From: Sphagnum compactum
Lineage: Eukaryota
Direction: 5' to 3'
NCBI GenBank assembly: GCA_965153455.1
Contig: OZ234493.1
Location: 124,001-188,000 of the forward strand
DNA: 64,000 bases
Each line of letters opens with the position of its first letter. The first letter of the stretch is position 1. The notes beneath the pieces are model-generated. The model was given only the letters and a program-made list of their open reading frames with translations, made no database searches and was not told the DNA's origin. Positions 3,001 through 49,139 of the stretch are shown here, in pieces. The position numbers and the translations under genes were made by a program.

Positions 3001-3295
3001 ATATTGATAATGCAAATTCAAGATGACCACTTTGATGGAGACTTAAGGCCTTAGGAAAGTCAATATGTCAATTGACAACATATGATGAAGGTTCAATGTA
3101 TGCCTTGGAATCACATTTAGAACAATAAAATACTATACCCTAAGAAATAGGGGGTTTAAACACCTAAACCACAAGTGATTTACAAAATTATGTGAAATAA
3201 TTTGTGAGGTGGAAAGGGGGGGGGGGGGGTCAAAAAAAAAAATGGAGCCATGTGTCATTCATCCATTAAATCCAAAAACAAAACTTATTAAAGAA

Positions 3296-3965
3296 TCCTA
3301 TATATAAAAGCTAACATGGTGTCTGTGTGTCCGTCTGTCCGTCTGTGTGTCACAAGACGTTCTGCGTTTTAACAGTGTCTGTCTGTCTGTGTGGGCAGTG
3401 CTTGGAAGATTCTTCCAGTCACTGCCCGTTCCCTGTGGAGTTCTTAACTGTCTCAGTTTTTGGCCACCTGGAGTTTACTTGCACTGGGGGGGGGGGGTTC
3501 ACCAAAACCTAGACATGGAATTTTTAAGGACATGATTTTCAGGACGTGAGATTTTAGTTTTGGGACGTACACGGTGTGGGTTTCCAAGACCCAAACTTGG
3601 AAATTTTTTGGACATGATTTTCAGGACGTGGGATCCTCAGTTTTTGGAGACCTGGAGTTTGCACTGCGGGTTTCCAAGACCCAAAAAAACCTGGGAAATT
3701 TCAGGACATGGTTTTCAGGACTTGGGATCTCAACTTTGGGGCCTGGGAAATTTTAGGATATGGTTTTCAGGACATGGTTTTCAGGACTTGAGATCTCAAC
3801 TTTGGGGCCTGGATTTTCACACTCGCGGTTTCCAAGACCGAAACCTGAAAACTTTTAGGATGTGATTTTCAGAATGTGGGATCTCAATTTTGGCACATGA
3901 TTTTCAGGACATGGATGGGGAACCAGGAAACTTCACAGTGTCCGAAGGTCACGGGCACCCACTAG
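3296..3965 (+). mobile_element. Non-autonomous Helitron (~670 bp) with internal tandem repeats
   Basis: Begins 5'-TC (TCCTATATATAAAAG) after an A, followed by a (TGTC/CGTC)n tract. Ends with the hairpin GTGTCCG-aaggtca-CGGGCAC and CACTAG before a T. A|T insertion with no TSD matches Helitron termini. More GC/CpG-rich than its flanks. Confidence 0.85.
3528..3915 (+). repeat. Internal repeats of the Helitron (GGACATGATTTTCAGGAC... / GGTTTCCAAGACC modules)
   Basis: GGACATG(A/G)TTTTCAGGAC-like motif recurs about 7 times; GGTTTCCAAGACC recurs 3 times. Confidence 0.85.
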
Positions 3966-6830: not shown

Positions 6831-8791
6831 TCCACTTGTCAAGTAGGATGTTATTTTACTAAATCCCATTGCCAAAACAAACTTTACCATTAAAATTTAT
6901 GACCATACAAGGGATGGCAATAGGAGTGTGAAGTCTGAGTGTCTATCATTTAAAACATGATTTGGGGGACCAAAGGATATTTTATCGAAAAGTTTGATAC
7001 AACACTGAATTATTATTTTTCAAGGCCTACAATTTAAAGCTTTAAAATGTCCCAATCCCACATGTTTTATGGACATCATTACTTATATAATTGCAAAAAT
7101 CTAAATGTTGGAATGTTGTGACTCCCACATTTGGGAGTTTTGGGAAGTGCCACTTTGATATAAGTCATGCAAGGAGTTGGAAATTATACTATAGGGAGAA
7201 CAGTGCTTGAAAATCCTTTATAGCTTTACTTGGTTGGTTGGTTTTTGCTCCAAACTTGATGATAATCCTCATGATTCATGTCATTTTGGGTGTTATATTT
7301 GTTTTTTTTGGGTTTCTTTTGAATGATGTGCACGTCAATTTCATAAAATGTAATTGTGGATGAATAGCAAGGTGGGCTACATGCGTTCATGACATAAAAC
7401 AATTAGTCTTAAATGTTTTCAAAAAATTGGCAAAGTGAAGCTTCCACAATATTATTCACAACATTGAAGGCATCAAAATCACAACCCTTTTGTATGACTT
7501 GCTCATGAACTTGCTTGCCCTTTTCAAATGCCACCACACTAGCACATGCATTCACCAACCCCATGAATGTGACAACATCAAGCTACACACATTCAAGATC
7601 AAATTTATTGAAATAATTTTGATGTGTCCTACCCTTGACCACATATCTAAATATTATGAGGTCATACAATAGAAATTTTTTACACATCCCCAAAGGCTTG
7701 TCACAATGTATTGGAAAAACTTTTCAATGTAATGTGTTACATAAGACTTAAACCTTGGGTGCACTCTTTAACTTCACATATCCATTACAAGAAATCATGA
7801 CTTTTCAAGTGTTCAATTTTGACTATCTTATTAATCTTGACCAATGAAGATGTACAATTTAACCAGAAGCCCAATACACGAATGGCCATTGTAATTTTTG
7901 ATTAATCACCTTGACTAATGTGACCCATTGATTAATTATCAAATGTTTATACATCTCTAGTCAAGTTGAACAAAAAAAATGCTTCATAAGTGGTCAATAT
8001 ATGGCGAATGGGAGATTTAATCAAGTTGGAGAAAAAATTAAACATTCTTAAAATCAAGATGACCAATGGGTTCTATTAAAATGGGACATCCTATTATGCC
8101 AATATTAGGTATACAAGTTTTCAAAATTGTGGCCCAACATTATAAAGACCATGTTATGTTTGTGCATGGTTAGCAATTTGTTAGTAAACTATGTTCTACC
8201 CACAACCTCCTTATTTAAAGCAAGAGGTATAGGTTGGAGGTAGGTAATTATAAAATGTCCAAAAATTTGGACACATCCTAAATTGAAGTATTGAATATAG
8301 CTCAACTAGGTAGGTGGGTAGACTAGCTAGTTAGATAAGGTAGCTTAGGCTTAGGCCTCGTTAGTAAGCTACTTAGTCTCATAAGAGTGAGCTATTTAGG
8401 TTAGCCTAGGCTAGCTTACTTTTCCTTTGTTCTATCACCCTTAAATTCATGTTGAGTGGAAGCACCTTTCAAAACATGAGCATCCATTGGGCAAATTTCC
8501 CCATCACAAACCCACATGTGCATAATATCACACATCAACAATCCTTGTTCCTTAAGCATTAGAAAAATTTAGTTTTGATCACTATGCCAATAACATTTTG
8601 CTATCTAGGTAATTAGATCATGATTTTCACATGAACCCAGTTCTTCCCAGAGCACACCGAATACAAACAAAGCTGGCAAGCAGAGATCAATGCAGATGTA
8701 AGCTTGCTTGAGTTTTTCCTCTCTGTCTGTGTACTGCCTTCTTCTCACAGTATGTGGTCTGATAGGAAGTTTTTCTGCAGTTCCTGGATGT

Positions 8792-8810
8792 GAGAGAGAG
8801 AGAGAGAGAG
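8792..8810. repeat. (GA)n microsatellite in the 5' region of the PPR pseudogene
   Basis: gagagagagagagagagag. Confidence 0.9.
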
Positions 8811-9039
8811 ATTGAGAGAATAACACTGGTGGGAGTAATTTTTGGATCCTTTGCAGTGATGAGATCACAGATCAAAGAAGGTAAGTGAACATCAATCCTG
8901 TCAGAGTTCACATGTCAATGGAGCCAAAGCTCTTGTTGGCGACAATCTTGTTGCTCTCTCTCTCTTGGTTGCTATCCTGCCATGGTCTAAACTTTGGCAG
9001 AAGTTCTTTTCAGATCCTGTGCACTGGTGGGATAATAGT

Positions 9040-9595
9040 AGTCAGATGGAGAAGGCAAGTAAATGCAATGTGTGGTTGTGAGAAAATTCTCTGGCTGATG
9101 GAGGTTGTCAGTGCAGCATTCCCTGTTTGTATGATGGCATGTATGCCTGGGAATTGGAGAGTGTATGGCTGATTGGCTTGATCTAGATTTCTGGTTGTAG
9201 CAAATGCAAGGTATGTGGACTTTCAAACATAAGAAGACACAAGAAGCACACTGGCGTGAGGACTGATGAAACTTGCCATGGGTGGCAACAGAGTTGGCTG
9301 CCATGGCACCCGGCACAGTGCAATTGAACATTTTTGCATGGAATAAGAAGCTTACAAAATATGTGAAGGATGGGCAACCTGAGAAGGTGATGCAGCTTTT
9401 CCAACAAATGCAAGGAGGGATGAGTTCCAACAAATTTACTTTTGTTCAGTTGATTCACGCATGTGCTGGTTTAGAAGCACTCAAAGATGGCAGGCATGAA
9501 CACAGTGGATGGGATTCAGATGTCTTTGTGGAGACTAGCTTGATTGACACATATGCAAAATGTTGGAGCATGGAGGATGCTTGGAACATGTTCAC
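9040..9595 (+). pseudogene. PLS-class PPR pseudogene, N-terminal part (targeting region and first PPR motifs)
   Basis: VRWRRQVNAMCGCEKIL... leader, then NIFAWNKKLTKYVKDGQPEKVMQLFQQMQ-GMSSNKFTFVQLIHACAGLEALKDGR...DVFVETSLIDTYAKCWSMEDAWNMF (P/L/S motifs). Contains in-frame stops, a frameshift and small deletions, and is truncated at about 9595. Confidence 0.9.
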
Positions 9596-10337
9596 ATTAT
9601 ATGACATAATTTTCTGGTGGTGATTGTTCACTTGTAGTTCAGTGACCAAAATGTGTCTGTTCAACATGAATTTTTTTCTCTTCAAATCATTGAATCTGCC
9701 ACCCCAGACCTTAATGTCATGGAATGGTCTTGTCCTTGCCCATATGTTGGGTGTGTCACCTACCTCTCCATAATGGGATTGCCTGGCACCTAACCCAACA
9801 TAATGGGCAGGGTTTGGGGAAGGACTCTGCATAGTCATTAGGGTTTGGTGCCTGAGAGACTCTTCCAGGTTGTTCACCATCTCCAGCCACAAGTTTCCTG
9901 CTGCAAACCCGATGAGCCTACAAAATGAGGGGAGCCTCCGCCAGGGTGCACATTACATGACAAAGATCAACTTAGCTTTGTCGAGGTCGATTAATCTCAC
10001 CTTCATGTGAAGCAATTCTTGCAAGGGGAGGGGAGGCAAGCAGATCCTCAAAGAGAGCCGTTTCAGGTCCGATGGCTTGAGGGAGTGCTTGAATCAGAAG
10101 CCTTCTTGCAGTAATGAAATATGTTGAGGAAAGATGTAGTAAAACTTGCAGGTCCAAAACAACGTCACGTGAAAAAATCACAGTAGCGGAAGTGCAAATT
10201 ATAGAAAGCGCATGGTCTGAAGACTTCTACTGCCGAGTGCGATCGCCTGCCTCTTGCACTCTGCTGTGAGCTGCTCGCTCGCACGCAAAAGAGGTAGCAG
10301 CGCGGAAAGGGCAGGGACAGGAGGCGGGGTTGGGAGA

Positions 10338-10383
10338 TTTACCATACGCTTTGGCACGGTAGGCGGAACGAAAGGGTATAAAA
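10338..10383 (+). promoter_or_regulatory. snRNA-type promoter: TATA box (TATAAAA, 10377-10383) and possible USE-like element (TTTACCATACG, 10338-10348)
   Basis: The TATA box lies about 28 nt upstream of the U1 5' end. The upstream element only loosely resembles the angiosperm USE RTCCCACATCG, so that part is tentative. Confidence 0.6.
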
Positions 10384-10404
10384 CCGGCGAGCGAACTCAA
10401 CGAT

Positions 10405-10565
10405 ATTACTTACCTGGGCAGGGTCGATCGGTGGTCAGCATGGCCGATGGCCTAGGGAACTCCCCACCATTGCACTGCGGAGCGGGTGACCTTAGCATTT
10501 TCCTACGGGGGGCATGCACGTCATAATTTGTGGCAGCGGGGGCTCGCGTTCGCACGGCCCCTACC
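10405..10565 (+). ncRNA. U1: U1 spliceosomal snRNA (variant)
   Basis: 5' TACTTACCTGG splice-site recognition sequence. Stem-loop I ATCGGT/GCCGAT. Loop II ATTGCAC (U1A site). Stem-loop III with a cUACGg tetraloop. Sm site ATAATTTGTGG (10523-10533). Terminal stem-loop GGGGGCTCGCG-TTCG-CACGGCCCCT. Length about 160 nt. Confidence 0.95.
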
Positions 10566-10769
10566 AAATAAACAAAACGTGGACTTGCGATTTATCACGC
10601 AACTACAGTCGGGATAATAAATTGGAATGAAATCGAATTGTCTTTGCGTCTATTGATGTGAGTCGTTTCATTGCACGTATTATGTGATTTCTATGTATGT
10701 TGCCGCAATGATTTAATTTCTGGTGCTAGGGAAATTCCACCCAAGCTATCATGTTGGGGTTGGGGATCG

Positions 10770-11307
10770 TTTTGGCAATTGGATCCCGAAAATGCTGCTG
10801 GTTATGTGCTGCTATGAAGCATCATCTATGCTTCCGCTGCCAACAGGCATTTCTGTGAGAATGTTGAACAGTGGAGGACAGAGAGAGGTGTTAAGGAACA
10901 GCTGGGTTGCACCTGGCATTGACGTGAATAGTGAGGGGCATACATCTGCAGTAGTTGATCAAGACCACCCTCAGATGATTGAAATCTGTGCAGAACTGAA
11001 GAGGTTTTCAGGGCTCATGCATGGTGTGAGGCATGTGACACATACAAAGTTTGTGCTGCATGATGTGGAAGAAGAAAAAAAGGTTTTTTCATTATCATAG
11101 CAAGAAACTGGCTATTGCATTGGGGCACATCAACACAACTCCTGATACTCCACTCTGAATATTAAAAAATCCATGGGTTTGTGAAGATTGTCATATGCTT
11201 CCACAGAGTTCATTAAAAAAATTAGTGGGAGGGCAATCATGGTGAGGGATGCCAATTGCTTTCATCACTTTGAAGATGACATTTGTTCTTGCCTGGACTA
11301 TTGGTGA
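10770..11307 (+). pseudogene. E/E+/DYW C-terminal part of a PLS-PPR RNA-editing factor, pseudogenised
   Basis: Reading across frameshifts: LDPENAAGYVLL*...ERGVKEQLGCTW/IDVNSEGH...DQDHPQMIEICAELKR...KFVLHDVEEEKK/HSKKLAIALGHINTTPDTPL*ILKNPWVCEDCH/...AIMVRDANCFHHFEDDICSCLDYW*. Contains stops and frameshifts, and HxE is changed to HSK. Confidence 0.95.
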
Positions 11308-13849
11308 TGCCAGTTGTCTATCTTGTGAATCACTACATCAAGTTAATTTTGCTCGTAGCATGTCTACTGGTACCATTGCACTGCCCATAGTTGCAAACTG
11401 TTATCAGATGAAGTACCACTAAAAAAGTGGCCATCGAGCATCCCTGTAGTTTTGATTTCCTTCCTCTACCATTTGTACCACTTAGGTCTGGTGCTTCTTT
11501 CCTGTTATGCATGGAGTTATTTTGGAAACTGAGCAGAATTTGCAGACTATAACAAGCTTTCCTAGGGTGTCTGCTCCACTGATGCCTGCAAAAAAATTAC
11601 TCATAAAGAGTTGTCAAATTTCTGTGGCACTTGACTATTGGTCCATTTCAGAAAACTCTTTTGTGGATTAAACGACATTTGTGAAGACTCTCTCACTGTT
11701 GACCACCTACTGCTGGGAGCAGTTGGAATGCTATGGTAGGCAATCAATATGATACATGCTGCCATCAAAGGTCCTGAACATGTGTATGCCTATGGCTGTT
11801 TATCAACCCCTCCTCAGTTTTTCATTTTGTTTATTTTTTTCTGCAGGGTTTGGGTTGTTCTTCTTCATTCTGGCTGTTTTCATGCTGTTATGTTGTTGCT
11901 CTGAAGTCTCTGTAATCTGGAAGCTTATTCGGTAGTTGGCTATCTCTCAATTCTATTCAGGTTGCATTGAATCATATGGACAAATTGTCAGTACTGATGA
12001 AGATATATGTCTTAGTTAAGACATCATGCCTACAGTTGCACAGGGGATCTGCCATCAACACCTCGATACTGTGCCTGGATTTGCTTGGCAAGGTGTCACA
12101 CCAAAAAGGACTAGTAACTATCACCATTTTTGGTCACAGTCAATTCCCTGCAAGAAAGAACTGGGATCATTGTGTGTTCATTGACAGCAGCTCATGGACA
12201 CCCTTGATTTCCCTTTGGGAATAAAGGCTCAGTGAAGTGTTTATGAGCAGTTCTAGTAAACAACGACTGATTGAGGCGTCTAGTATGAAGTATAGTATAG
12301 TGTTCTAGTGATTCCTTGAGTGCCAGTTGATGCATAGCATCAATTACATGAGGAAGGACAAGAATTAGGGCCAGATTCTCTCTTCTTTTTGTGATCTTAC
12401 CATTACATAGTGGGTGAAATCATGTCTCAAAGATGTTAATTTGCATAGAAGATGACAATGTAGTCTAATTTCCTAGTAATTTTTTGATAGGTAACATATT
12501 GGCTACTTTGTGATATTATGAAAGTGGAGCCTAATTTTCTAGTGGGTGTGCTCCTCCTTAAATGCAGCTATAGTAATTTGTGACAATTCTCCATCTCTTT
12601 GAGATACAAAAGAATTTTTAATCATTGCCATTCCTCATCACATTCCTATACCCCGTTTTAGACCTCATCACCGATCAAAATTGTGCAATGCGATCTCTAT
12701 TAATGCAATCTCACATTACTTTTAATGTGTCCATTTGTTTGGGGACATGTTAAGATGCATGAGAAATATTGTATAACGCTCAATAATTCTAGGATTGAAA
12801 TCCTTGGATGAAAATAACACTAGAAATGTGGCTGAAAATGCAACAAATAAGTCCAGAAATGCCTCAATTCCCTACCACTGCCAAAATCAATTTTAATTTG
12901 GTGAATAGGTGGATCCAAGAAGAATGACGTCCAGATAAATTGAGTGAAAAATGTAGTATGAGGATGAGATGCCTGATGAACTTTTCAGTGATGGATTAGG
13001 TTAGAGAGTGCTGTTTAAATCCAGATGTTACAAAAACTGAAAAGGAAGATTGGCATGTAATCTGAGTACTAAGGCTCAGTTTGAATGCAACTGAAATCAA
13101 GACTTTCCTAGTATGGTATGCAAGAAATAAGCTTTGAAGTTTGGCACAGGGGCTCAACTAGAATCTAGCTTTTAGGAAATTATGCATTCTGAAGATGAGA
13201 AAAAAGCTCAGGTATTCATAGGCAATCTATATTAGAATTCTAAGTGCATGGTGGTTTGATCACCTACAAGCAGGTGAAGATCTATATGATTTGGTCAACA
13301 AGAAAACATGACCAAGGTAAAATGCTCTTGTTTTGAGTATTAAGAGGTGAATGAGCTAAGCTCAATACAGTTGCAAGCTGTTTCAAAGTTCTTGCACATG
13401 ACACACAGTCTACAAGCTGAGAGCCCGCTTCCAAATTTTCCTTCTAAATTGAACCCTTGTTTGTTGAAACTGATAGCTCTTCAGGCTAACCTGCAGAGGG
13501 GAATGATTGCCAGCCAATTAAAGGCTACTGGAAAGGGAACAAATATCAATTTCACAAGAAGAGGGGGTGTGCTGTGAGGTTAAAGGCAAAAAACTTAAAT
13601 TTGAGAGCAATGGGGCTTCTTATCCAAGAGACTTGAGAATGAGAAGAGTCCCAAAATTTCAAAAGAAAATTCAAGCACATGAAGCATTGATGTGAATGAT
13701 AGGTCAACGTAAGGCAAGACCTTCCATGCTATCTGAGAAGATATGCATCCAGCACTAAGACTTCATTTGCAAAGACCTTGAAATTCATGAAATTGATGAG
13801 GCATATCTCCATGCACTATATTGCTATCAACAGATCTTTGGAAATGACT

Positions 13850-14390
13850 CTTGTTCACTACACTTGTTCCCATATGCAATGCTTGTGCTAGGTTGTGAGC
13901 ACTTGAAGATGGCGGATGTTGCTCATGAACAGAGCAGTACTCATATTGGTTGTCAGGAAAATGTGTTTGCCAGAGTAGCTTGGTTGACATGTATCACAAT
14001 GTGGAAGCATTGGAGGATGCTCCAAGAGTGTTCAACAAGATGCGATCATGCAATGTGGTCATCTGGGCTGAATGATACAGTGGCACATGTAAAACAATGG
14101 AAAGTCCAAAGGCAATGGAGCTATTTGAACAAATGCAATCAGAACATGTTCAGCGGGACCCTGTTACTTTTTTCAGGGTACAGAATGAATGTGCCACTGT
14201 ATTGGCATTGCTAGAGGGTAGCCATGCCTATGAACAAATAACAACATATGGTTTTGAGTTCTTCACAGGGAGTACCTCATGGGATATGTGCAGCATGGAT
14301 GATGCTTGGGGAGGAGAGTCTTCAACGGGAAGCCCTTGTGCAATATGTGGCTGTGTAGACAGACTTGCTTGGTGCTGGGAAAATTTATAG
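13850..14390 (+). pseudogene. Second degraded PLS-PPR fragment
   Basis: SSLVDMYHNVEALEDAPRVFNKMRSCNVVIW... and KAMELFEQMQSEHVQRDPVTFFRVQNECATVLALLEGSHAYEQI...CSMDDAW, with stops and frameshifts. Confidence 0.85.
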
Positions 14391-16610
14391 TGATCTGAAG
14401 ATCAGAGAATTGCTACACAGGAGCGAGGTACATAATGAGCTGCATATTTTCAAGTAGATGATGGAGATCATCTTCAAATGGCTGACATTCCTGCAGACAT
14501 TGTTGGTGCAATCTGTCTCTGTAGCTTATGTCCATTGCTTTGTGGCATGTGCCTTTGAATGCTTAATCTCAATGTTGAAAATATGCTGAACAAGAAGTAA
14601 TAAGAAGTATTGTTGCAATTCTCAAAAGGAGAGGAAGAAAGTAGAGATGAAACTATCAACCTAGGCAGGTAGTTAGATGCAAAATTGTTCATGTTGGTGT
14701 TTGGTACAACAAATGGACATGAAAAGGCCAACTGAATTGATGTGATAATTATAGCTATAAAGTTGGAGTTGCTAAGTTTTTCTTTGGTAGCCTGTTCTCT
14801 CTCCTTTTACATTGATTGTAGCATTGGTATATTGCATTGTTCATCTCTCTATGACATCAAGGCTGTCTTAGACATCATCATCTTTGCCATTGCTGTTGCA
14901 TATGAGTTTGCATCAATTGCAAGTCTTTGCATAGAATATTTTTTACTAGGTTGCATTGCTTTTCGTCTTGACTTTTTTGGGTCTTGCTTTGCACAAAAAG
15001 CACCAAACACTAAAGAGCATTTTGGTTTCAATCCACAAGTTACCCAAGAACCAAGCAAATGTTCAACACATTGGGGAAACATAGGACAAGCAACAAAAAG
15101 TAAGAAAATGTCCCGCAAAACATTCTCATGGAAATAACTGATTTGTTGGGTTATACAACATTTTTGTAGAGTAGGAGACAATTTCATCTCACCATGTAAT
15201 TGACATTCATTATATTAGTACTTTGCTTAGAGATTGCATACAAAAATTCCATCCATCTTTTTCTATCAGGTACATGTGGTTGGTCCATCAATTTGGAACC
15301 TTATGTGTGTGGCGGGACTGGTGTGCTGGATGGCAGTGGGTTCTTGTGGGAGCAAAGAGAAATCTGCTTGGCTGGGTAACAACATAGGTTCAAATACTTT
15401 CAAGATCACTTCTAATATTCAGTCTCTTCTCCCACACATTTAAGATTTTTGAGCTAGCACACCACAAGTATAGCTTCCAATGGAACTGCATCCAAGCTAA
15501 TTATATACAATTATGAAATCCAAGACATGTGAAATTAATTTCATTATGAAAATCCAGCAATAATATGTTGCTACCCCCCCACATGAAATAAATGGGTAAC
15601 ACAACCAAGAACTTAGATTGCATTCAATTAAAAACTTGCTAGACCAATACAACAAAGCCCCAAATAAAAGTCAAACACAATAGCTGCACAAAACTTATAT
15701 GTTCCAAACAACCATGAGAAAAAAACATCAATACATTCTCACACAAGCAATGTAGAGAATCTAAAGAGGTCGCTACATTGTACAATTGTAACCAAGAAAG
15801 TCAGGAGGATTAAGCCATCATTAATGTGGATACATTTCATACACCATTTGTGCCATTTAAAGCAAAACAATATCATGAAAACATGTCCCTTTCTCTTAAA
15901 TAGCCATGCTAAGTAAAATTATTTGCACTTGCTCCAAGGAATAGTAGAAAGGAGATGATGAAGCTGAAATTCAAGAGAGAAAACACAACACTAATTGGGA
16001 ACCAGGAAATACATGCACAAGACTTCACATATGCAGCTCTGCATCAAAGTTTTAGAAAAAGCTCAAAAAACATCATTTTGCATAATTTGGAAAGTCCCCA
16101 AAACATTCTCCAAAGCAAAACGTAAATTACAAATTTGCCTTGCTACAAAAGCTATTGGTTCTAAAAGTGCAATGACTGGGTGGCTGATTCTTGGTCTGCT
16201 TACTTGTAAAAGACATATGTCCACATAAATAGCACCTGGAAAAACCCATTCCAGGTGCAAGGTATTGTGGAATCAATGCTATTATTTTAAAATTGCAAGC
16301 AGCAGAATTACATTCCATGGGCATGAAGCAAGTCTGGCTTTAAAATCTTAAATCTTTCTGCACATTAAAGCAGTCACTTTGAAACAGAACCTAAACCTGC
16401 CATCAATCAGTCAGGGGGACAGACATCATCTTCACTAGTAAATTCATAATGGTCAGGAACATGCCTTCTTCCTTCACAGGTTTGTTGTCTCCCAAAACAC
16501 TAACCACTACACTCACCACTTTGCAACATACAAGCAAAGGGAAGATCCCGACTTTTGGTGTTCTTGTATTGCCTAGTATTACAGGTGGGTTAGGGGGAGG
16601 GGGGGGCGCC

Positions 16611-19600: not shown

Positions 19601-22600
19601 TCGCAAAGTATCAGACCATCGACTTTTATCAAGTGGTACTGACTAGTGACAAGCTGACATGACATCCCACTGACTTCATCGGCTCCCAAATAGCGGGTGC
19701 AGATAAGTGAAAAAATTCTGCTCTAAATCAGACAAGTGATTATATGAAAATCTGTGTCCTAAGATTCTCTTGCATTCCCAGAAGAAATGGGAAAACTTAG
19801 TCATCAATTTGGCTTCCATTCAAGAGACAGCTAAATCAGAAAATGGTATCCTCTTTCAAGCTCCAACAAGCTTGTGAGGGTAAGCTTCATTCCATTTTGC
19901 TTGCCTCTGTACAAGCAAGCATCTAATCCTCAAGCACAGAGACACCTACACAGAGGGCATTGGTGGGGATATCCTGCACACCTTTCAGCACAGCACTGGT
20001 GACTACTTGATGCAGTATGTATAGTTTTAAGTATAAAACAATGTGCTAAAAAATCAGGGCAAGATTGAGTCATGATGTTGGCTAGCACTGACAGACATAG
20101 CCAATCAAAAACATCAAGTATCTGGAAAGGAGAAGGGATTGCTACTCAAAAGCTACAGACAACATTAGGAATGAGGGGGATACGATCAGCGAGAGACCGC
20201 TTTCTTGATATTGGTACTGCACTGGATGCACTTTCTGACACCTGAAAAGTACCAGAGCTCCTGCATGCAACCAACCAAAAACTCAAATCAAGAAAATCCA
20301 CCAGTCTCAAGATTTCCCTATCTACAGAACCAGAATGAACACCTTGCTCATGGCTGGAACTCAGATCACCCAACTCACCAAGTTCATACAGATCTTTCCA
20401 CTATGGAGTCATAACACAGGCTCACATAATATACTGGACATATAGGTCTTACCTAGCTAAAGGAACAGGTGATGCTGGCAGACCATTGCTAGAAGATGGA
20501 ACATCCAGAGCTTTCTGCAAGGATCCCTGCAAGATGCTCAAGAAAACATGGAAACTCATGCAGTTGAACTTAAAAACATTGGAACAAGCTCGTGCAAAAA
20601 AACCATACCAAACACATGCAACCTGCAAACCTAGACAAAGTAGAAGATGACTAATGGTTTTCTACCAGAACTGCCAGTTGGCACCCCAGTGACAGCTTTA
20701 ACATGTCAAGATCCTGCCAATTCCTATCAACTGGAATGTCATACTGGAAGATGTCAACAAAACCTGCGCAATATACACTCACCCTCTCAGTTGAAGCCTT
20801 CTCATCCACTGTCATCTTCTCTGCAGCAGGAGATATTCGATTTTTGGACTGTGCTACCTCAGCTGTCAACCCTATAAAACACAGAGGATGAGAAACCATT
20901 GGTACATAGACCTCTGATTCTTAAAATTAAGATAACTGGCCCAACTCCCATCAGGACCACCAAAAACCTAACAGCACTACATGCACTTACATTCATTTTC
21001 ATTGCATAATGTTTGCAATATATATATCCAGGAATGCTTGAGAGTGATTCTTAAAATTAAGATAACTCGCCCAACTCCTGTCAGGACCACCAAAAACCTA
21101 ACAGCACTACATGAATTTACATTCATTTTCGTTGCATAGTGTTTGCAATATATATATCCAGGAATGCTTTAGAGTAAGGGTGAGTTCTCCTCCAAGAATC
21201 ATTCATTTAAAGCCTAAACATACCTATCTTTGTTTTCTTTTTCTGGTGGTCATAGCCCGTAACCACAACTGCGGCATCCCTGCACATGTACGAGGCCAAA
21301 AAGGGCTGACAAAAGAACAACTATACAAGCTGTACACAGAATGGGATTGATAGCACATTGGTACCCAAGCCTCTGAAAAAATTTGTCATCAAAATTGCTA
21401 ATAAATCATCCAAGCACAGTTGTGGAACTGAATAGGACTACATGAGGTTATTCTTCTGAATGGCGTGCAGCCATGCTAGGTATATTATCATTCCCACTGG
21501 CTGCAAAAAGTGATAAAATTAGAATACAGACCTCTGTCTTATCCGTAAACCAGGTGATGACTCTGACAAATCTGCCAACAAGGCACAAGCCATTGTCACT
21601 CTCCAATTCATAGAACAACAGTGCACCAGGGTGTTTGTAATCCAGAAGAAAAAATAAGTATGAAAATTTATTGGAGTCCATGGTGCCCACAGAGTGGCAT
21701 CACACAGAATGCCAAGGAATGGCTCCCTCAATTAAGCCAGTGTGGCCCATACCCTGATGAATATTGCAATGAGGATAACAAAGTCCAGCTCATTTCACTA
21801 CACACATATGCATGTACCTTTTGGAGCTGTAACAGGTGCAACAGATCCTGCTGTCCTCCTTGCATCAGCCTTACTCATCAAGAGCTTGCTCCACTTGGAC
21901 ATTAACCCCCGAGCAAAGGTGGCAACATCTAACTCCCCCATCAAGACTCCAATATCAGATAAGGGCAGGAACTACTGTAGGATGAAAAAATCACAGGGGA
22001 ATGAAGGGACACTATTAGAAATTGGAAGTGTTGCAAGCTCACCAGACAAGTGATAAAAGCGGAGTTTGTTAACAGGCTGCAACAAAGCAGACATCTGAGG
22101 GGGAATTGCATGAGTCATTGGCAAATGAGACAATACCTGCAACCAGGAAAGATAAGTTCAAAGACACTCTATAATCACCATGCAATTGCTACATATATTG
22201 AAGATAATCTCTCTCTAGTTGTGACCATCGTAATGTCTACCAACACTTCAATTCGTATCCTGACCTAAATGGGTCAGAGCAGATTTTCTTGCGGGGGGTG
22301 GGGTCTGTATGGGTGGGCTGTTGGGGGACCCTGTGAATGACATCACATGAGCCTGAGTCCATCAGATTGTACCCAGAAAACCAATAATAAGGGCTAGGGT
22401 TCAGGTTTTTGAGCACAAAAGACATTGCCTACCAGTGGCCCAACCAGACTGGAAACTTGTCACCTGTCCCTTTGAACTGGATGACTGCCTATCAGCTCTT
22501 CTATTTCATTATGACTGCTGGGCCATATATATTACATGGCCAGTTAACATAACAGATTCTCTATTTGTGCCAGGAGAAGGCAGTGGAGCCCAAAGGGACT

Positions 22601-25943: not shown

Positions 25944-26835
25944 GTTGGGGCGGAGTTGTTGTCTTTTACATAGGATCTTTTGTCTTTCCCTCTTCCGTTT
26001 TCTTTTAGGGTTAGTAAACCCTTCCTTCTTCGGGTTGTCTCTTCAATCACTAGGTACGTCCTTCTCTTTTACCTATCACATTTTGTCTATCTTTTGCCTA
26101 GTGCAGTTTTCTTCTTTTCCTCTTTTCTCTCCCAGCGGTTGTTGAACCCGTGTTGGGCGGTTGTTGTCTTTTACATAGGCCTTTTTGTTTTCCCCCCTTC
26201 CTTTTTGTTTTAGGGTTTGCAGCGATTCTTTCTTCGGGTTGTCTTTTCAATTGGGTGCCACTTCCTTCTGTCTTTTACCTAACGTAATTCTCTTCTTTCC
26301 CTCTTTTTCTCTCCACCTATGGTTGAACCCTTGTTGGGCGTTTATTTCTTTTACATAGGCTTTTTAGTCTTTCCCTCTGCTTTTTTCTTTTAGGTTATGC
26401 AGCCCTTCTTGCTTCGGGTTGTTTCTTTAACATAATTCTCATAGTTTTCTTTGTCTTTGACCTACTGTAGTTTTTTCTTCTTTCCCATTTTTTTTCTCTC
26501 CAACTGTTGTTTAACCCGTGGTGGGCAGTTATTTGATTTTGTCAAATAACCTACGGTTCCAATTCTTCAGACAATTTTGAGAATCAAAAGAATATCCGGA
26601 TCTAGGACGGTTATCTATTTTTTTCTTTCACATAGGGTTTGTCGTCGTCTTTCCCTTTTCTTTTCTCTTGGGTTTTGTAGCCCTTCTTCGGGTTGTCTCT
26701 TCTTTAACTACTTCCTTCTCGCGTTTGTCACAGCGTTTCTCTGTCTTTTACATAGTGTAATTTTTCCTTCGTTCCCTCATTTCTCTCCAGCTGTTGTTGA
26801 GCCGGTGCTGGGCGGTTATTTGATTTTGTCAAACC
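25944..26835. repeat. Degenerate ~180-210 bp pyrimidine-rich tandem repeat directly upstream of LD
   Basis: Recurring modules GTTGAACCCGTGTTGGGCGG, CTTTTACATAGG, TTCGGGTTGTC and TTTCTCTCC; about 4-5 copies. Confidence 0.8.
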
Positions 26836-26981
26836 CTAGAGTATCGAGTTTTCTGAAAATTTTGGAATCCGAAGAAATTCTGGTTCTAAGACGGTTATCT
26901 GATTTTAAAAACTACTCTACAGTTCCCATTTCTAGGTTCTTGGACAGGGTCTTTCAGTTTTTGCAGATTGCATTTGCCTAG

Positions 26982-27165
26982 ATAGCCCAGATAGGGAAAC
27001 TGGCCATTTAATTCAAATATCTAAATATTAATATTTAAGCATTCTTAGTATTTTAAAAATTCAGGCATTTAATTCAAGGAATATTTAATGCCTAAATATT
27101 AAATTCCTAGATATTTAAATATTAATATTTAGTTTCCTACATAGCCCAGATAGGGAAACTGGCCA
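26982..27165. repeat. 25-bp perfect direct repeats flanking an AT-rich palindromic spacer
   Basis: ATAGCCCAGATAGGGAAACTGGCCA at 26982-27006 and 27141-27165. The spacer contains AAATATTAATATTT twice. Confidence 0.9.
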
Positions 27166-34829: not shown

Positions 34830-37626
34830 TCAGCAAGCTCCACCCACTTGACAGTAACTTATGGGACCTGCATCTGCTGTCATGTTTCCCACCATGGTAG
34901 AAGGCAGTGCAACGAAACTAGTGGCTTGGGTGTCGTAGATCGTACTGTTCCAAAAGGAGGAATTTCTTGCACCTGAGGGTGTGAAGAAAGCGCCATTCAA
35001 GAATAGGTCACCGGATGATGTCCAATTCCAAGTGTTTGCGGATCCAAAATCACTGCCTCCATCATCGATGCGCATAGTCACCTGCAAAGTGTGTTTTATG
35101 GATTCATCAGCGATGGACCCTAAATTATTTGTCATCATCAGATCATTGCAGCAGAGAAAAAACAGAGCCCTGAGCTGGAAGAGAATATAATATTATGTTG
35201 TGGAATCAACTTGATTGACGCTGTAGATTATAGTAGTTTGTTGACTCTGCCCTTAAGGGTAGAGACATTGTGAAGCACCCAGAGAAACGGGCCAAAGTTT
35301 GGTACCGCTACATTCTAGTGTCATGTGGAAGTGCACTATTAAAAAACATTTCCAACATAACTGAAGGATCTACTTAGGCTTCGCCATGCTAATCACCATG
35401 TGTTAAATCCAAATCAGTATGTTGAATATCTATAATCCGTATGGATGTCATTTCAAGGCTAGAGCGCTAGGTAGCTAAAGATCATAACCAGCTTGATTTG
35501 ATCACGAAGAAGAATTCTTACCTCCTTCGAGGTGCTGACATTGGGAGCAGAGTAACGATTTCCCTCGCTGTTGATGGTGGGAGCCTCACTGCCTCCTACT
35601 GCATATATCCCCCATGATGTGTAGTCGTTGTTCACCACATGAAAGAACCCATGTCGGCATCTGCAATGTCGGAAAGAAAGGGGGAGGAAAGTCTACTAAG
35701 TTGAAAGCTCATCAAGGGTTAAGGGTTTATCAAGCTCATCAAGCTGGTTATTCACAACATTCTTGAATCATGTGATTTGTTACTGTTTTATGGCATCCCA
35801 ATGGCATGCGCCTCGTACAAGCAAGATCTTGAGATTAATTAGTATGTACCATGATCTAAGAAGTGAGCAAAAGAGCATGACAAATGACTGACTGACTGAC
35901 CTTGGCAGGCGCTGCGTGAGATTGGCCCCAAAATGGTTGAACGCAACTGTAACCCGCAAGTTGCCGTCCATAGTGTCATTTGGATGTGCACCAAGAAGCA
36001 TCACCTGCACGCGTGGTTGCGAACAACACCGTGGTTAGAATAAACGATTTCCTTCTGACTGGCAACTTGAGAGCAACGTCCTCAGCGAGAAAGAAAACCA
36101 GATCACGCTTTCAAGCAATCGTTCACTTAGCTAAGACGACCAAGAAGAACAAGAGGACAAGGTTTTGCGCACTGGACTTGCACACCTTATCATGGTCGGT
36201 GAAATAGTTGTTGGAAACGGTGATATCAGTTGATCCCATAATGACATCAACGAGTCCATCTGCGCAATTGGCGAAGTAGCAGTGATCAACCCAGATGTCC
36301 TGAGACCCGAAGATGTTAACAGCATCGCCGTCGGTTGTTCCTCTTTGCCCGAAATGTGTGCTATTGCTTCGAACTACCGCAGGTCCGGTAGAGATGCAGT
36401 CGTGGATGTGAACTCCGTGAACGATGACGTGAGTCACGTATTCCAGCGTTAGACAAGCGCCACCAGCGATATGGATATCGAAGCCTCTGCCGTCGATGGT
36501 CTTGAAACTGGACATGATAAGCTCTTCTTTGAGAGTCAGGTTCATATCGCTGGCGAAGATGATCCACAGAGGCTCTGCCTGAGTAACACCGTAGCGCAAC
36601 GTGCCTGGTGCGGGGTTCACAGTATCATTGTCACTGTTATCGGTAACAATATAGATCTGCCCTCCTTGTCCACCGACGGCCTTACTGCCGAACCCGAGAG
36701 CACAGTCCGCAAGGTTTTGCCGGTTATTTTCCCAGTTGGGATCACATCTCCAGCAATCATCGATCGGATTTCCAGATCCACAGCCGCTTTGGAGAACTGA
36801 TCTTCCAGTGTAGTCGCGGATCCTTCCCTCTGTCTGCTCATTGCTGCACATAAACTCGAATGTTATCCTTGATTGCAGGTAAACTACCTACTCGGTGCTC
36901 TGGACATCGAAATCCCTGATGAAGTACGAGAATCGATGAGCGGTCACATACAAGGCCTAGAATGGAAAGTTCAATGCAATAATTGCTTGTAATCTAATAC
37001 ATGCAGCACTAGAACAAATATCACTTTCTAAGGAACCACCGAAAGCACGCGCAATGAAGAGGTTGCAACTGTCTGTAATTCATGAATGATATCGCATCTT
37101 GTGCAGTCTTCTCGTGTTAAATCGAAGTTTATACGGATCATAATGGTTGTAATTCTCACTGTTATCGCAATTGATCGCTACTGCAGCGGCGCAGGTACAT
37201 ACTTTTCGGTTCTGTATTGATCTTACTACAACCGATAGCGACAACCTGTTCTCTTTGCAGAAAAGACGACTTCGTATGTATAGGAAACGACTTCACCGCG
37301 TTGCAAGGTGAAAGAATTACGAGAAACAATTTATGTCTTGACTACGAATCCGAGCGCAATCAACAAACAATGACGAGTTGCAAAACTTACCTCGACCCCA
37401 CGTTGAATGCCGCCCACCCGTCCGCCTCATCGACCCTGGAAGTCACAACTCTTCCTCCACCACCAGCTAGCCGCGAAGCCAAATCTAAAGCTGGAACCTG
37501 TCTGACAGCTCCGCACACAGAAACACTCCCACACATTACAGTAGCAAACACGAACAATGGGACCACGACGTCCCCAACCGAGTGCCGCATTGACGAATTA
37601 GCTGAGCCAAATAATAAACGCGCCAT
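34830..37626 (-). CDS. Pectate lyase (PL1 / Pec_lyase_C), 5 exons
   Basis: Exons 37391-37626, 36186-36843, 35901-36004, 35522-35660 and 34830-35081 have GT-AG ends and join in frame. Motifs [68 protein letters not shown]. Hydrophobic N-terminal segment. Confidence 0.96.
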
Positions 37627-40572: not shown

Positions 40573-43500
40573 CTACATGCTACTTTGCATCTCCCTTGGA
40601 GCAACTGCAGACTGTTGAAGAATCTCAGAAGATGCGACAAGCTCACTACTAGACGGGTTCCCTGTACTAACTAGTGGATCGGGAACCACAACAAAATAGT
40701 CGGACATGGCTTTACGAAATCTCTTCTTGTATTCCTTTGGAGAGATCACAGTTGGTGGAGCGTTTTTGGGTCCCCCCAGGATCCCAGATGCTTTCACCCA
40801 TGTCTCAAGATGTTTATCCCACGTATACTGTCGGATGAAATCAATAATTCCTACCACTAGCTCCTGGTGCGTTTCATCAACTCCAACCAATAGAGAATAA
40901 TCCATTACATTCACCTTTGCAAGGAAACTTGTGTCATTATACACAGCTCGGTCAAGCACAAGTTTGGCCTTGTTGTTCACAAAAATCGGGGCAGTGGGCA
41001 TGGTCTCAATCAAATTCTGGTCCAGCAACACCTTATTCATCCCTGATGCATCAGCATTGTACCGTGACCGCTTGGAACCCTTCAAGTCATACAGGCGGGT
41101 AGTATGACGACCATAGAACAGATTCTCCATCACCAGCAGGTCCAATTCCTTCACCGCTTTACCACCCTGCTTCAACTGCACTGTATAAATACCCAGAATC
41201 TTGGCTAGACATGTGGGACTAGCAGAATTCAGTAAGTCACAGAGATGAGTAAAATACTGAGGTGCAAATTCCAAGAAGGAATGTTTCTCTGTGCTAGTCA
41301 CTTGTTTCACAATAAATCGGTCATCCATAGTCTTTGCAAAGTACACATTGCTCTTGCCCCCTTGAGCACCCCATTTCTTGCACCTACTCATTGATCGAAT
41401 GTACTCCAACTCCCCTCCACAACACTTGACCCGGAGAGCCTGGAACTGCTTGGCATAATGGCACGTTACACGAAACTCTGTCTTTCCTTGCTGACCAGTT
41501 TCTGCAAAGTGCACCTTCACAGTGGTAAGAGTTGGGGACTTCAAGGAATCAGTCACAGAGGTCTCCCTTCTTGACTTAGAAGCTGCTAATTGTTCTGGAG
41601 GTGGAGTAGTGCTTCTTATTTTCTCATCACCCTGGTCTGCAACAGGTAATCCCTCAACTGCAGTTGCAATCTCCCCTCTGTCTTCATCTTTCACCCTAGG
41701 CTTTTCCATCTCCACATTTTGAAGCCTGTTCTGGTACTCATAAGATGTAAGAGCATAGGCAATAATGCTTGTGGGTTCATCATCATACACTGCAACAACT
41801 GTGCCATTGACACCCGGAGGCAGACGGACTCGTGCAGTCCCATGTGCCACCAGCTGCACAAGTGATCTAGTGGGTGAGATACTCCATCTATTCTGGGAAC
41901 TATCCATACTACCACCCCGGAGTGAGCTGGATCGACTGTACCCTTTATCCAGGCTCATGGAAGGAACTCCTGCAAGTGCTCCAGACTCATCACTTCCTTT
42001 CACTGGTGAAGTTGGTACACTCACCTGTGAAATGGCATCTCCAGCAACTTCATCACCTTGGACTGGCTCACTCCCACTTGTTGACACTGGCATGGGTGCC
42101 AGATCACTGAGACCAGCTTCCCCTCCAGGTACAGATTCTGTGTCCCTACTGCCCTCAGTATCCTCTTGCTGTGTCACATGCATGGAGGAAACATTATCAG
42201 ACCCAAAAGCACCTCCCCTGGCTGCCGCCACCATATCTGGGAGATCAACCAAACTTGGAAACTGCCCCTCTGATAAAGTTCTCCGCTCACCCAGTTCTCC
42301 AGCTGCAGGGGACAGTGAGCTTGCAGCATCCCTGTTTAGCATGTGTTCACTATCTCTAGAGGGTTCCCCAAGAGCAGTATTAGTTTGATCCGTGCTATTG
42401 CTTATTGAAGGGAGAGGGCTTGATGCTTGCCTGTTCAAGGCAATCGCATTCACTAACAGTTGTCCAGAAGCTTCACTGCCTTCCTCAACATCCCCAGGAT
42501 TAGCTTCAATGACTTTCTCTGGTGCCACTGCCTGTCTCAAAGCCTCAGACTCTGATTTTTGTTCAGAATCAGAGACAGTATCCTCCTCAGTAACACCTCT
42601 CGTACCTGTTGTTGATTCTCCAGAGACAACAGAGGGATTCATGTCCCCTACATTCTCTCCTGCAGGTAGCTGCTCCAACCTGCTGTTTGCAACACCAAGG
42701 TCTTCACCAACTGCTTGGGCTTCCAGTACATTCAATTTCTTCATTGCAGGATCCAAATTTGAGCCAGGTGCACCATATGCCTCTGTAAGCTTGCTGATAC
42801 GCATGTCCCAGTCACCTGAAAGATCTGCAATGGTCTGTCGAAGCTTGTTGAGGGCCAGAATATCAGCCACTGGCTGAAAAGGCTGGCACTTGCCTGGCGC
42901 TGCACTTTGCAGTTCCGCCTCAAACTCACCTTTCTCCTTCTCTAGCACACCCATTAGCTCTGCAACTTTGTGACTTCTCATGCTCTGGTAGGGTCCTAAG
43001 CTTGCAGAGTTTTCTCCAAGTTCTCGCAATGTTTCTGCTACTTCCACAAATAGCACACTTCCAAGCTCTGCAACTTCACTGGCCTCATTCAGAAGCCACT
43101 CTTGCTCATCAGGATGATTGAACTCCAATTGTGGGGGAGGAACATAGACAGAGTGCATTTTGATTGGGGTGTAGTGGAAGCATGCCACTGCATTTCCCAA
43201 TCCAAAAAACCTGAGACAATTCCGGTGCACCGAGTGACCACAGGCAGCACTCCGACTAGCAGCTGCATGATTAGAGAAACTGAGCTCCAGAAACTTCCCA
43301 AATGAAAGGTCCAGGGCTGAATCTGAAATCAGAATCCTTCGTGTAGCAGGATAGTCCCCATTCACACGTGCACACTGAAGACAGCGATGCCACATCCATA
43401 TCTTCCCCTCTTTCTCACCTGGTAGAACAGAGTCTTTCAGGAGCTTTGAAGAGATGGTGAGGCTGCCTTGGGGATGTGTGTACCTATGTTCATGCGTCTC

Positions 43501-45417: not shown

Positions 45418-45921
45418 ACCTGCTACACAACAACCAAATTTTAAAAGCTGGCTTGGAGAACAATTCTGAAGCTGAGGCTGGCCTGGCACATTCAGAACTC
45501 AAACTATAACCACTAAACAAAAGAGCATTCACCCTAAAATGGTCAGGATTGTTGTGCATGGCTGAATGACGACCATGATACATAATCACAATGTATAAGG
45601 ACTCAACGTTGCAAAAGCTACAACAGCTATCCCAGATCAAAGTCATGCGAAACTTCACCACCAGCAACCATAACATTAAGCATGCCATAGACATAAGGCA
45701 ACAAGTTGATGAAAAAATCCCAAGGACTCTTGCCACAAGAAATGAAGCAGACAACATTGCTTGCTGGCTTTGTTTGTAAAGAAGCAGGAGGACTCCTCAC
45801 CAGTTCACATCCCTTGACTCTCCTCGTTGGTTGTCAGGTGATCTGATAACATGCGTCATATGTGATGCCAGGAGCCAGATGCCTTCATCCTCCACTCCTC
45901 CTTGTGTAACCGGCAGCTACA

Positions 45922-48182: not shown

Positions 48183-49139
48183 GCTTCATTAGAACACACA
48201 TTGCAAGGATTTATTTTTCTTTTTATCATGGCCAATTTTCGGAACCAAAAACAAAAATCGAGAATTATAACAAGAATAGATAATCTGTTTGTTGCAGATT
48301 TCTTTGGTTTTTTAAAGAAGAAAAAATCACCAAATATTGGACAAAATCTTTTTTTTCTAAATTTTGGGAGAAAATGTTTTTTACATTTTTTATTATCATT
48401 TTTTGTTGTGTGTCTCAAGGTAGTTTGTTGTCACTTTTTCTATTGTTCAGATAATTTTCTAATACATTTTCTATTTAAAATTAATGCTAAATATATCTTG
48501 GATTAATGCTTGTCACTCACGTAATTTTTTTTTAATTTTTTTTAAAAAGAAAATCCTACATACATTTTCATAAACTGTTTTTCTTTTTTTCTTTTTTTTT
48601 CATTTATTTGGTTTTCCCACTTTATGTGCTTTTTTTGGATCCCTATTGTTTTGGAGTTCTTGCTTTTTTCTTCTTCTTTTGTGTGGGAGAGGGGACTTGG
48701 GTTCTTTGCATTAAGAATTTTTAAGAACCTACCAAGTGAGGTGGGTGGGTAGGTCCAAGGTGGTAGGTACTATAACAAATGGTGGGTGGCACATGAATGT
48801 TTCTTTTTCAGGTCTATTTTCCACTACTAAAAGGTGATTCACCTTGGAAAGGAAATTTTTTGACCCATCCCCAAAAGCCCAAAAAAAAAAAAAAAAAAAA
48901 AAAAAACCATCTAAGAAAGGAGAAAAAAAAAAAATTGACCCACCTTGGAAAGGAAAAAAATATTACTATAGACATTATTGGTTGTTTTGATGTGATGAGC
49001 CCAATTGGGTGAGAAGTTAATCAATTGTTGTGTGTTTAGTTTGTTAGCCCTTTATTATGTGGTTTAATGTTTTGTAAAGTAATAAGAGTCATTTCATCAA
49101 GCTTAGTTGTTCGGGTTAATCATGTGTAATTCTTTAGCT

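Follow-up and report, generated by a model that had tools for sequence, protein, structure and literature searches.

How does a U1 snRNA gene with its own promoter come to lie between two pieces of a PPR-DYW gene? The question is raised by a locus of Sphagnum compactum located in the 64 kb stretch of DNA analyzed here, referred to as the window, the features of which are listed in Table 1. The reading in which we place slightly more belief than doubt is that a plant-type U1, probably transcribed and unmethylated, is carried on approximately 965 bp of non-PPR DNA replacing the centre of a single dead Sphagnum PPR-E-DYW gene.

Table 1. Features of the locus (positions are those of the window)
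Feature	Position	Strand	Remarks
N-terminal conserved motif KLWQKFFSDPVHWWDN of PPR pseudogene	8989-9036	+	frame 1; 11/16 identical to P0010 aa 89-104
Leader and first P-L-S repeat triplet of PPR pseudogene	9222-9617	+	91/141 (65%) identical to P0010 aa 116-256
Degenerate PPR continuation, probably P motif and start of L motif	9618-9750	+	same frame; ends in 'PPQTLMSWNGLVLAHM'
Imperfect inverted repeat (hairpin) at left breakpoint	9734-9812		left arm in PPR-derived sequence, right arm in insert
Left part of non-PPR insert	9753-10262	+	no family match; unique in window; CpG observed/expected 0.43
CpG island around U1 gene	10100-10760		observed/expected 0.9-1.25, sliding 332-nt windows starting 10051-10551
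U1 transcription unit (promoter, gene, ~30 bp 3' flank)	10263-10594	+	common to L012, another moss-like U1 locus
USE-like element TTACCATACGC	10339-10349	+	-67 to -57; same position as ATCCCATAGGC in L012
TATA box TATAAAA	10377-10383	+	-29 from 10406; same position in L012, L063, L069
U1 snRNA gene	10406-10564	+	Rfam RF00003 match, full length
Right part of non-PPR insert	10595-10716	+	AT-rich yet CpG-rich, observed/expected 1.75
S2/E1/E2/DYW remnant	10717-11307	+	ends in DYW and stop; 31/47 and 71/130 identical to P0010 aa 586-761

The identity of the U1 gene is well defined. Rfam RF00003 has a single match in the 64 kb window (101.5 bits against a gathering value of 69.5, E = 2.3e-24), spanning model positions 1-166 of 166, and this is the sole Rfam match at E ≤ 1 within 8800-11500. 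Transcription may begin at A 10405. The gene DNA contains ACTTACCTG, ATTGCAC and AATTTGTGG; read directly, the 5' splice-site pairing sequence ACUUACCUG (10408-10416), the AUUGCAC of loop II (10469-10475) and the Sm site AAUUUGUGG (10529-10537) are all intact. The four-stem-loop U1 fold, taken as the RNAalifold consensus of seven sequences, comprises 48 pairs, 44 of which are formed by the window copy compared with 43-47 in six relatives, while the single-sequence MFE fold fails to give this consensus structure. By these features the locus holds an ordinary plant-type U1 snRNA gene, normal-looking for a peat moss, the RNA of which would have the same role as any U1, pairing with 5' splice sites via ACUUACCUG. 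A preliminary description had claimed a complete U1 with a TATA box 28 nt upstream, and both are present, the latter at -29.

Retroposed snRNA pseudogenes are recognized by the lack of upstream promoter homology, an A-rich tail and flanking direct repeats. The animal examples resemble the present gene as dispersed snRNA copies at odd genomic sites, but here promoter homology and a full-length 3' end are observed, and both a poly(A) tail and flanking direct repeats are absent. The shared unit (332 bp) aligns with positions 3854-4186 of L012 at 79% identity over 337 columns, and the homology takes in 143 bp upstream of U1, including the TATA box and the USE-like element. The short A-rich stretch 3' of U1 is also present in L012. 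Retroposition is ruled out by the upstream homology, the A-rich flank common to both loci and the missing direct repeats; on this homology the U1 is a DNA-level copy that includes its promoter, as had been proposed. Outside the 332-bp unit the window and L012 have nothing alike at the DNA or translated level, and the U1 locus of L012 is without PPR flanks.

The base composition of the locus is equally distinctive. Across the 64 kb, 332-nt segments have a median CpG observed/expected of 0.22 and a 95th percentile of 0.89, compared with 1.04 for the U1 unit (10263-10594), in agreement with the locally CpG-rich island described before. The ratio rises to 1.75 at 10595-10722, and is 0.09 in the 5' PPR piece and 0.15 in the E/DYW piece. 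The island is probably kept unmethylated, and the USE-like/TATA promoter of the U1 gene is probably still driving its transcription.

That the U1 copy is instead a decaying pseudogene, duplicated and silent, whose intact look reflects no more than youth or slow decay, is unlikely but must be weighed seriously. Of the nine moss- or plant-like U1s compared, it has the poorest Rfam score (101.5 against 105.9-141.4). Four consensus pairs are broken and four private changes (10420 A, 10492 T, 10499 T, 10554 A) occur at columns invariant among the relatives; all four are G-to-A or C-to-T transitions, and two of the G-to-A changes disrupt pairs. However, these counts are within the range of the relatives themselves (1-5 broken pairs, 2-9 private changes), the functional motifs are intact, and the CpG island has been kept in a genome otherwise strongly CpG-depleted. 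The promoter can be argued both ways. Its USE-like element has ACCA where the usual core is CCCA, which is kept at -75 to -55 in 34 of 47 TATA-bearing U1 sites (metagenome loci), with ACCA variants in 4. Nevertheless, the ACCA-type USE is also found in L018, L033, L053 and L096, and the first two have U1 genes scoring 135-138 bits; moreover, the antisense ORF P0119 of another contig, with codons read by eye, implies a TATA box and an ACCAT variant too. Finally, the strict plant 3' box, CA(N)3-10AGTNNAA as given in the accessible text of PMC5079582, is missing downstream of the window U1, which would fit decay, but it is equally missing in the eight relatives examined. Since all nine compared sequences are without it, the Arabidopsis consensus is uninformative and non-transferable here, and its absence tells nothing about decay.

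The flanking gene is in a very different condition. In a tblastn search with 54 PPR-DYW proteins, N-terminal homology falls at 9222-9617, where the frame contains two stops and has lost 5 codons, and E/DYW homology at 10770-11304. The E/DYW remnant has at least three frameshifts and in-path stops, and HSE is changed to HSK, with CxDCH retained. Pfam recognizes PPR_2 (E = 2.1e-12, 9270-9623) and DYW_deaminase (E = 3.6e-11, 11185-11307); five of the seven ORFs scanned at the locus gave no match, nor did the ORF with the N-terminal motif, nor 9618-9750 alone. For the latter stretch, alignments of P0031 and P0012 reach 9746, and the paralogous antisense ORF P0126 has 9659-9799 in common with the window. 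The locus does not hold the one ORF with a full PLS array and an HxE...CxxC zinc site required of a functional PPR-DYW. In the Sphagnum PPR-E-DYW family (P0010, P0090, P0094/P0095 and others) the leader, first PLS triplet, E1/E2 and DYW align with it at 55-70%; in contrast to this family, the window copy is without some 270-300 central codons, is interrupted by stops and frameshifts, and no longer has the catalytic glutamate of HxE. By this homology and damage both pieces are pseudogene remnants of one PPR-E-DYW family, presumably without function. The preliminary description of the gene as broken was correct as to damage but understated it, as both pieces are long dead. Its central observation, that the PPR array is missing with unrelated DNA in its place, is confirmed by tblastn and Pfam, but the limits require revision: PPR sequence extends from 8989 to probably ~9750 instead of ending at 9595, the 3' piece begins at ~10717 instead of 10770, and the non-PPR DNA measures ~965 bp instead of ~1.15 kb. 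Read-through from U1 into the DYW remnant would give non-coding RNA only, owing to the frameshifts, the stops and the HSK in place of HSE.

Regarding the insert itself, a coding origin was considered and rejected, as no insert ORF has a Pfam match. In a representative protein search it retrieved near-identical short ORFs, which are the same locus on other contigs, together with one weak repeat-like match. A MITE- or miRNA-like element at 9620-9830, suggested by P0126, was likewise discarded: the strong match ends at ~9760, within PPR-derived sequence, and Rfam is empty there. An 8-nt direct repeat, ATGTTGGG, occurs near both junctions, but it is located 35 nt within the right PPR piece, and by a rough estimate chance would account for it. 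At the left breakpoint, the hairpin ranks second among short-range inverted repeats of the 64 kb window. It folds modestly better than shuffled sequences (z = -1.55, for a hairpin picked post hoc), and its spacing of 40 nt exceeds that of typical snap-back products. Local 8-mer repeats are enriched at this break (5 compared with a shuffle mean of 0.76, P about 0.011). No snap-back-type scar is observed at the right junction.

In the favoured reading, the two PPR pieces would once have been a single gene, whose centre (~270-300 codons, the central PLS repeats) would have disappeared through a deletion or at a double-strand break. The break would then have been repaired with copied ectopic DNA bearing the U1 unit, and templated end-joining would have left its scar on the left side in the form of the inverted repeat and the short local repeats. 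We infer from the sequence the direction of this event, namely that the U1 unit moved in as opposed to PPR remnants coming to lie around an older U1. The latter course, in which an ancestral U1 locus lay between two tandemly duplicated PPR-DYW copies and deletions cut the upstream copy short on its 3' side and the downstream copy on its 5' side, with nothing moved, is rather improbable though by no means negligible. A 7-kb stretch contains no fewer than three fragments of PPR pseudogenes (7442-7684, minus strand; 8989-11307 and 13860-14501, both plus strand), and with this other debris present, a U1 locus with a different copy on either side is plausible. The fragment at 13860-14501 is an independent, internally deleted copy, showing that large internal deletions are common locally; its own E-domain remnants mark it as separate and also exclude that the missing central array was simply moved there. 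In addition, the CpG island extends to both insert edges on the right side. Against this, two deletions would have to happen to leave collinear, same-strand halves in correct order, with a gap of ~965 bp close to the missing coding length of ~800-900 bp (relative to P0010), and at the left break the last PPR bases recur in inverted orientation, which a repair junction would be expected to show. Similarity to individual homologues points in both directions. Among 55 of the 109 fetched proteins, those matching both pieces over enough length, N- and C-terminal scores are uncorrelated (rho 0.17, p 0.21; a low-powered test of a common paralogue), as two source copies would predict, whereas P0094/P0095 give the best N-terminal match and also the second-highest C-terminal score, as one gene would.

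Construction of the PPR and U1 mosaic by a gene-fragment-capturing transposon (Pack-MULE, Helitron or similar) is very unlikely. Pieces of unrelated genes are joined here in a gene-poor region, where the long ORFs of 0-35 kb have no Pfam match other than PPR, and this has the appearance of such capture; however, no terminal inverted or long direct repeats surround the mosaic, the insert is unique within the window, no transposase-like ORF is found nearby, and the PPR pieces retain gene order and strand. An assembly artefact joining unrelated sequences has nothing in its favour and is practically excluded, as independent contigs run through the left junction unbroken.

The latter point is documented in some detail. 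ORF tiling on independent metagenome contigs covers 8990-10400, which takes in the left junction and the U1 promoter: P0125 covers 8990-9589, P0121, P0122 and P0124 cover 9593-9907 (95-96% identity), and P0117 and P0119 cover 9975-10400. Antisense ORFs from other contigs (P0110, P0117, P0119, P0121, P0124) match 9753-10262 at 88-96%, and junction-spanning ORFs occur on at least 11 contigs in the cluster tables. On this tiling the arrangement is real and conserved for its left half (8990-10400). Mis-assembly, named beforehand as a way in which the observation could fail, is countered on the left side by this recurrence at 88-96%.

The proposed repair has known counterparts. Genomic DNA is captured at plant double-strand breaks. 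According to the available portions of PMC5728401 and PMC2943611, synthesis-dependent MMEJ with snap-back synthesis gives templated insertions at break repair junctions. The window resembles such filler insertions in that a deletion is replaced by unrelated DNA, with an inverted copy of break-proximal bases 40 nt away and short local direct repeats at the junction. It differs from them in that the insert (~1 kb) carries a whole gene and is far longer than typical patches, the right junction is without such a scar, and the mechanism is deduced from sequence alone. A wider and distinctly speculative proposal is that the U1 gene and its promoter were copied as filler into a break in the PPR gene, leaving a fold-back scar; that ectopic-template repair would offer promoter-bearing snRNA genes a way of spreading through moss genomes; and that the unmethylated island would have persisted in methylated pseudogene DNA in several Sphagnum lineages. 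The earlier suggestion of snRNA gene dispersal through PPR turnover is not supported: among 128 other U1 loci, a PPR-like match lies near only L029 and L030, which are overlapping pieces of one contig (24% identity), and none lies beside the six most moss-like U1 loci. The locus offers a clean, dated example of a small RNA gene inside a wrecked protein gene that has kept its own promoter and unmethylated state. It changes nothing in the known function of U1 or PPR proteins and is a local curiosity, not a new kind of system.

With plant Pol II-type U-snRNA genes (USE, TATA at -30) the likeness is close: a full-length U1 preceded by a TATA box near -30 and, at about -65, by an upstream element, in a member of a divergent multi-copy family copied including its promoter. 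The Arabidopsis U1 family has 14 copies (Wang and Brendel 2004, PMC545797, as stated in the accessible part of that paper). Departures from the plant genes are the ACCA core in place of CCCA and the lack of a strict 3' box; compared with the U1-U4 pairs of Arabidopsis, no U4 gene follows the window U1. The gap between USE and TATA is 27 nt (27-28 nt in the moss-like relatives), compared with 32-34 bp quoted for Arabidopsis in the available excerpt of PMC8287931, a figure perhaps measured differently. Among the moss-like loci, TATA and USE-like element of the window are in register with L012, L063, L069 and L082, and the USE-like position in L063 and L069 is occupied by GTCCCATAG/T. This provides a first view of moss-type U1 promoters, with an element like TCCCATAG near -65 and TATA at -29.

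The arrangement is read, with some preference, as a probably active U1 snRNA gene carried on ~1 kb of copied DNA, which would have replaced the middle of a single dead PPR-DYW gene and reached fixation in several Sphagnum lineages. Nearly all top protein hits for the PPR pieces are from Sphagnum, suggesting a peat-moss-like genome. The 5' piece, which is interrupted by two in-frame stops and lacks five codons, aligns with aa 116-256 of P0010, a Sphagnum PPR-E-DYW protein of 761 aa, at 65%, while the N-terminal motif KLWQKFFSDPVHWWDN at 8989-9036 aligns with aa 89-104. The pseudogene start (8989-9036, 9222-9260) carries KLWxxFFSDPxxWWD ... FKHKKT, which is also present in intact Sphagnum PPR-DYW proteins (P0010 aa 89-121); in the window its halves lie ~185 bp apart, through an intron or insertion. 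The 3' piece aligns with aa 586-761 at 55-66%, the alignment crossing a frameshift. By direct frame reading it contains at least three frame changes, with stops inside, and the deaminase HSE has become HSK, with CEDCH and the terminal DYW retained. Beyond the 9621 stop, the frame of the 5' piece carries on through 35 codons as far as 'PPQTLMSWNGLVLAHM' (9699-9746), a stretch covered by two tblastn alignments. Moreover, P0126, an antisense ORF of a paralogous locus on another contig, matches 9659-9799 at 54% identity, so that a diverged paralogue of this PPR part exists elsewhere. Together, these observations place the left break near 9750; the right break would lie near 10717. Between the breaks, ~965 bp of other DNA occupies the place of ~270-300 missing codons. 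The preliminary description of a U1 gene inside a broken PPR-DYW gene is confirmed with these adjusted coordinates.

The same left-side order was found on independent contigs. When an 84-aa antisense ORF inside the insert was searched against 1.84 billion representatives, it matched a 69-aa protein at 96% identity, the cluster of which has nine members from metagenome contigs. For a 165-aa antisense ORF across the left junction, a word-based search (6 hits among 17 candidates) returned four proteins at 95-96% identity and P0125. Since ORFs of other contigs tile 8990-10400, the 5' PPR piece, left junction, insert, and U1 promoter occur in the same order in other assemblies, junction-spanning ORFs being listed on at least 11 contigs. 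P0119, P0124, and P0115 each come from a contig of 47,223 bases, and P0122 and P0125 from one of 10,963 bases, probably one contig in each case. In our codon reading of P0119, residues FIPF and MV match the reverse strand of the TATA box and ACCAT, respectively, and both thus appear to be kept in that genome.

Features located in the window and the basis of each assignment
Feature	Position	Strand	Basis or remarks
PPR patch	7442-7684	-	tblastn, 54 PPR-DYW proteins; ~80 codons with P and L motifs and a single stop
5' PPR piece	9222-9617		tblastn, 54 PPR-DYW proteins
3' PPR piece	10770-11304		tblastn, 54 PPR-DYW proteins
PPR-E fragment	~13857-14501	+	tblastn, 54 PPR-DYW proteins (13857-14309), and own E-domain remnants
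ORF P0125	8990-9589		tblastn back-mapping
ORFs P0121, P0122, P0124	9593-9907		tblastn back-mapping
ORFs P0117, P0119	9975-10400		tblastn back-mapping
U1 snRNA gene	10406-10564	+	Rfam, full-length
Pectate lyase gene	36126-36887	-	
FAB1/PIKfyve-like lipid kinase	40576-45498	-	single 1641-codon open frame, Cpn60_TCP1 and PIP5K domains
SURP module	56620-57345	+	
CCCH zinc finger	59360-61537	+	
Tandem repeat arrays	3502-3914; 20915-21175; 25948-26906; 49116-49605; 55685-56219		self-comparison

The left break is marked by an imperfect inverted repeat (9734-9752 / 9793-9811), second-best of the short-range ones in the window, which extends to a ~25 bp hairpin at 9734-9812 and has the last PPR-derived sequence as its left arm. 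This hairpin was noticed post hoc, and its fold is only modestly better than shuffles (z -1.55). The 78 bp past the break have five 8-mers in common with the surroundings, where shuffled sequence would give 0.76 (P ~0.011). The left break looks like templated end-joining; no comparable repeat mark was found at the right junction. An inverted repeat at 27024-27121 outranks all other short-range ones in the window.

U1 is the single RNA gene that Rfam detects in the 64 kb (score 101.5 bits, gathering threshold 69.5, E 2.3e-24), and a permissive RNA-family scan of 8800-11500 returned nothing further. It contains the 5' splice-site pairing sequence ACTTACCTG, a loop II reading ATTGCAC, the Sm site AATTTGTGG, and a GC-rich terminal stem capped by a TTCG loop. 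For comparison, metagenome contigs were scanned by a pattern of two U1 motifs, yielding at least 128 loci; L012, L063, L069, and L082 are the closest relatives among the matches listed (80-84% identity). The consensus fold of a seven-sequence alignment has the four expected stem-loops and 48 pairs, 11 with compensatory changes; the window U1 forms 44 and its six relatives 43-47. Four changes, all G-to-A or C-to-T and two disrupting a pair, are private to it at columns invariant in the relatives, which have 2-9. By Rfam score it ranks last among nine U1 sequences (the others 105.9-141.4). Taken together, these values put the gene body within the range of its relatives, at the weak end. Another metagenome contig, L043, is an snRNA gene cluster, with U1 (1952-2115, +, 141 bits) and U2 (3113-3319, -, 136 bits) ~1 kb apart on opposite strands and part of a second U2 at the contig end.

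Plant snRNA genes require two signals, USE and TATA (PMC545797), and the spacing between them selects the polymerase (PMC8287931). In the window, TATAAAA begins at 10377 (-29); in the four closest relatives the motif starts at -27 to -29, with a (T/A)CCCATAG-like element at ~-66. TTACCATACGC at 10339-10349 lies in the same register, with ACCA in place of the usual CCCA core. The fetched loci contain 121 distinct U1 sites; TATA is present at -36 to -24 in 47, of which 34 have CCCA at -75 to -55. ACCA-type variants accompany four other TATA-bearing sites (L018, L033, L053, L096), two of which adjoin U1 genes of 135-138 bits; the variant appears unusual, not disqualifying. The strict 3' box, given as CA(N)3-10AGTNNAA in PMC5079582, is absent from all nine U1 sequences compared, so this criterion is uninformative here. 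Upstream of the USE-like element, 10263-10340 and L012 3854-3935 contain perfectly conserved blocks, TAGCAGCGCGGAAAG near -135 and GGGGTTGGGAGAT near -80, which are candidates for additional promoter elements in moss U1 genes. CpG is strongly depleted in this genome: observed/expected is 0.33 over the window (median 0.22 in 332-nt windows) and 0.09 and 0.15 in the two PPR pieces, against 1.04 in the U1 unit and 1.75 in its right flank. This island would reflect long-term absence of CG methylation and fits an active promoter. A handful of others lie at ~25.4, 26.5, 33.7, 36-37.7, 47.5, and 56 kb. Separately from the origin of the locus, a silent U1 copy seems rather unlikely.

The main rival, an older U1 locus lying between remnants of two PPR copies, is considered rather unlikely. 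The pieces share strand, correct order, and a matching gap size, which favour one gene; other PPR debris nearby speaks for the two-copy reading. Of 109 fetched proteins, 55 matched each of the two pieces at sufficient length and were compared. P0094/P0095, which scores highest for the N-terminal piece (180 bits), ranks second for the C-terminal one (198.5, maximum 200.9); across the 55, the two scores are uncorrelated (rho 0.17, p 0.21), the C-terminal domains being too uniform to discriminate. The fragment at 13860-14501 has L-S-P-L-S motifs followed by weakly recognisable S2 and E2 remnants, is broken up by several stops and large internal deletions, and lacks a DYW end; it was rejected as the missing centre, as its own E-domain remnants mark a separate, internally deleted copy. 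Retro-copy origin of U1 is rejected, and the earlier claim of a non-retroposed gene with its promoter stands: 10263-10594 is 79% identical to L012 across 143 bp upstream, the gene, and ~30 bp downstream, including a short A-rich 3' stretch, with no similarity beyond at DNA or translated level, and no flanking direct repeats were found.

The suggestion that PPR turnover disperses snRNA genes was not borne out, a PPR-like hit near U1 occurring on one other contig (overlapping pieces L029 and L030, 24% identity) among the at least 128 loci and at none of the six most moss-like ones among the matches listed. No report of snRNA genes within PPR pseudogenes was found in a literature search that was not exhaustive for that claim; the locus joins known kinds and is of modest interest. 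Elsewhere in the window, the tandem array at 49.1-49.6 kb has a unit of ~71 bp, with copies 87-92% identical.
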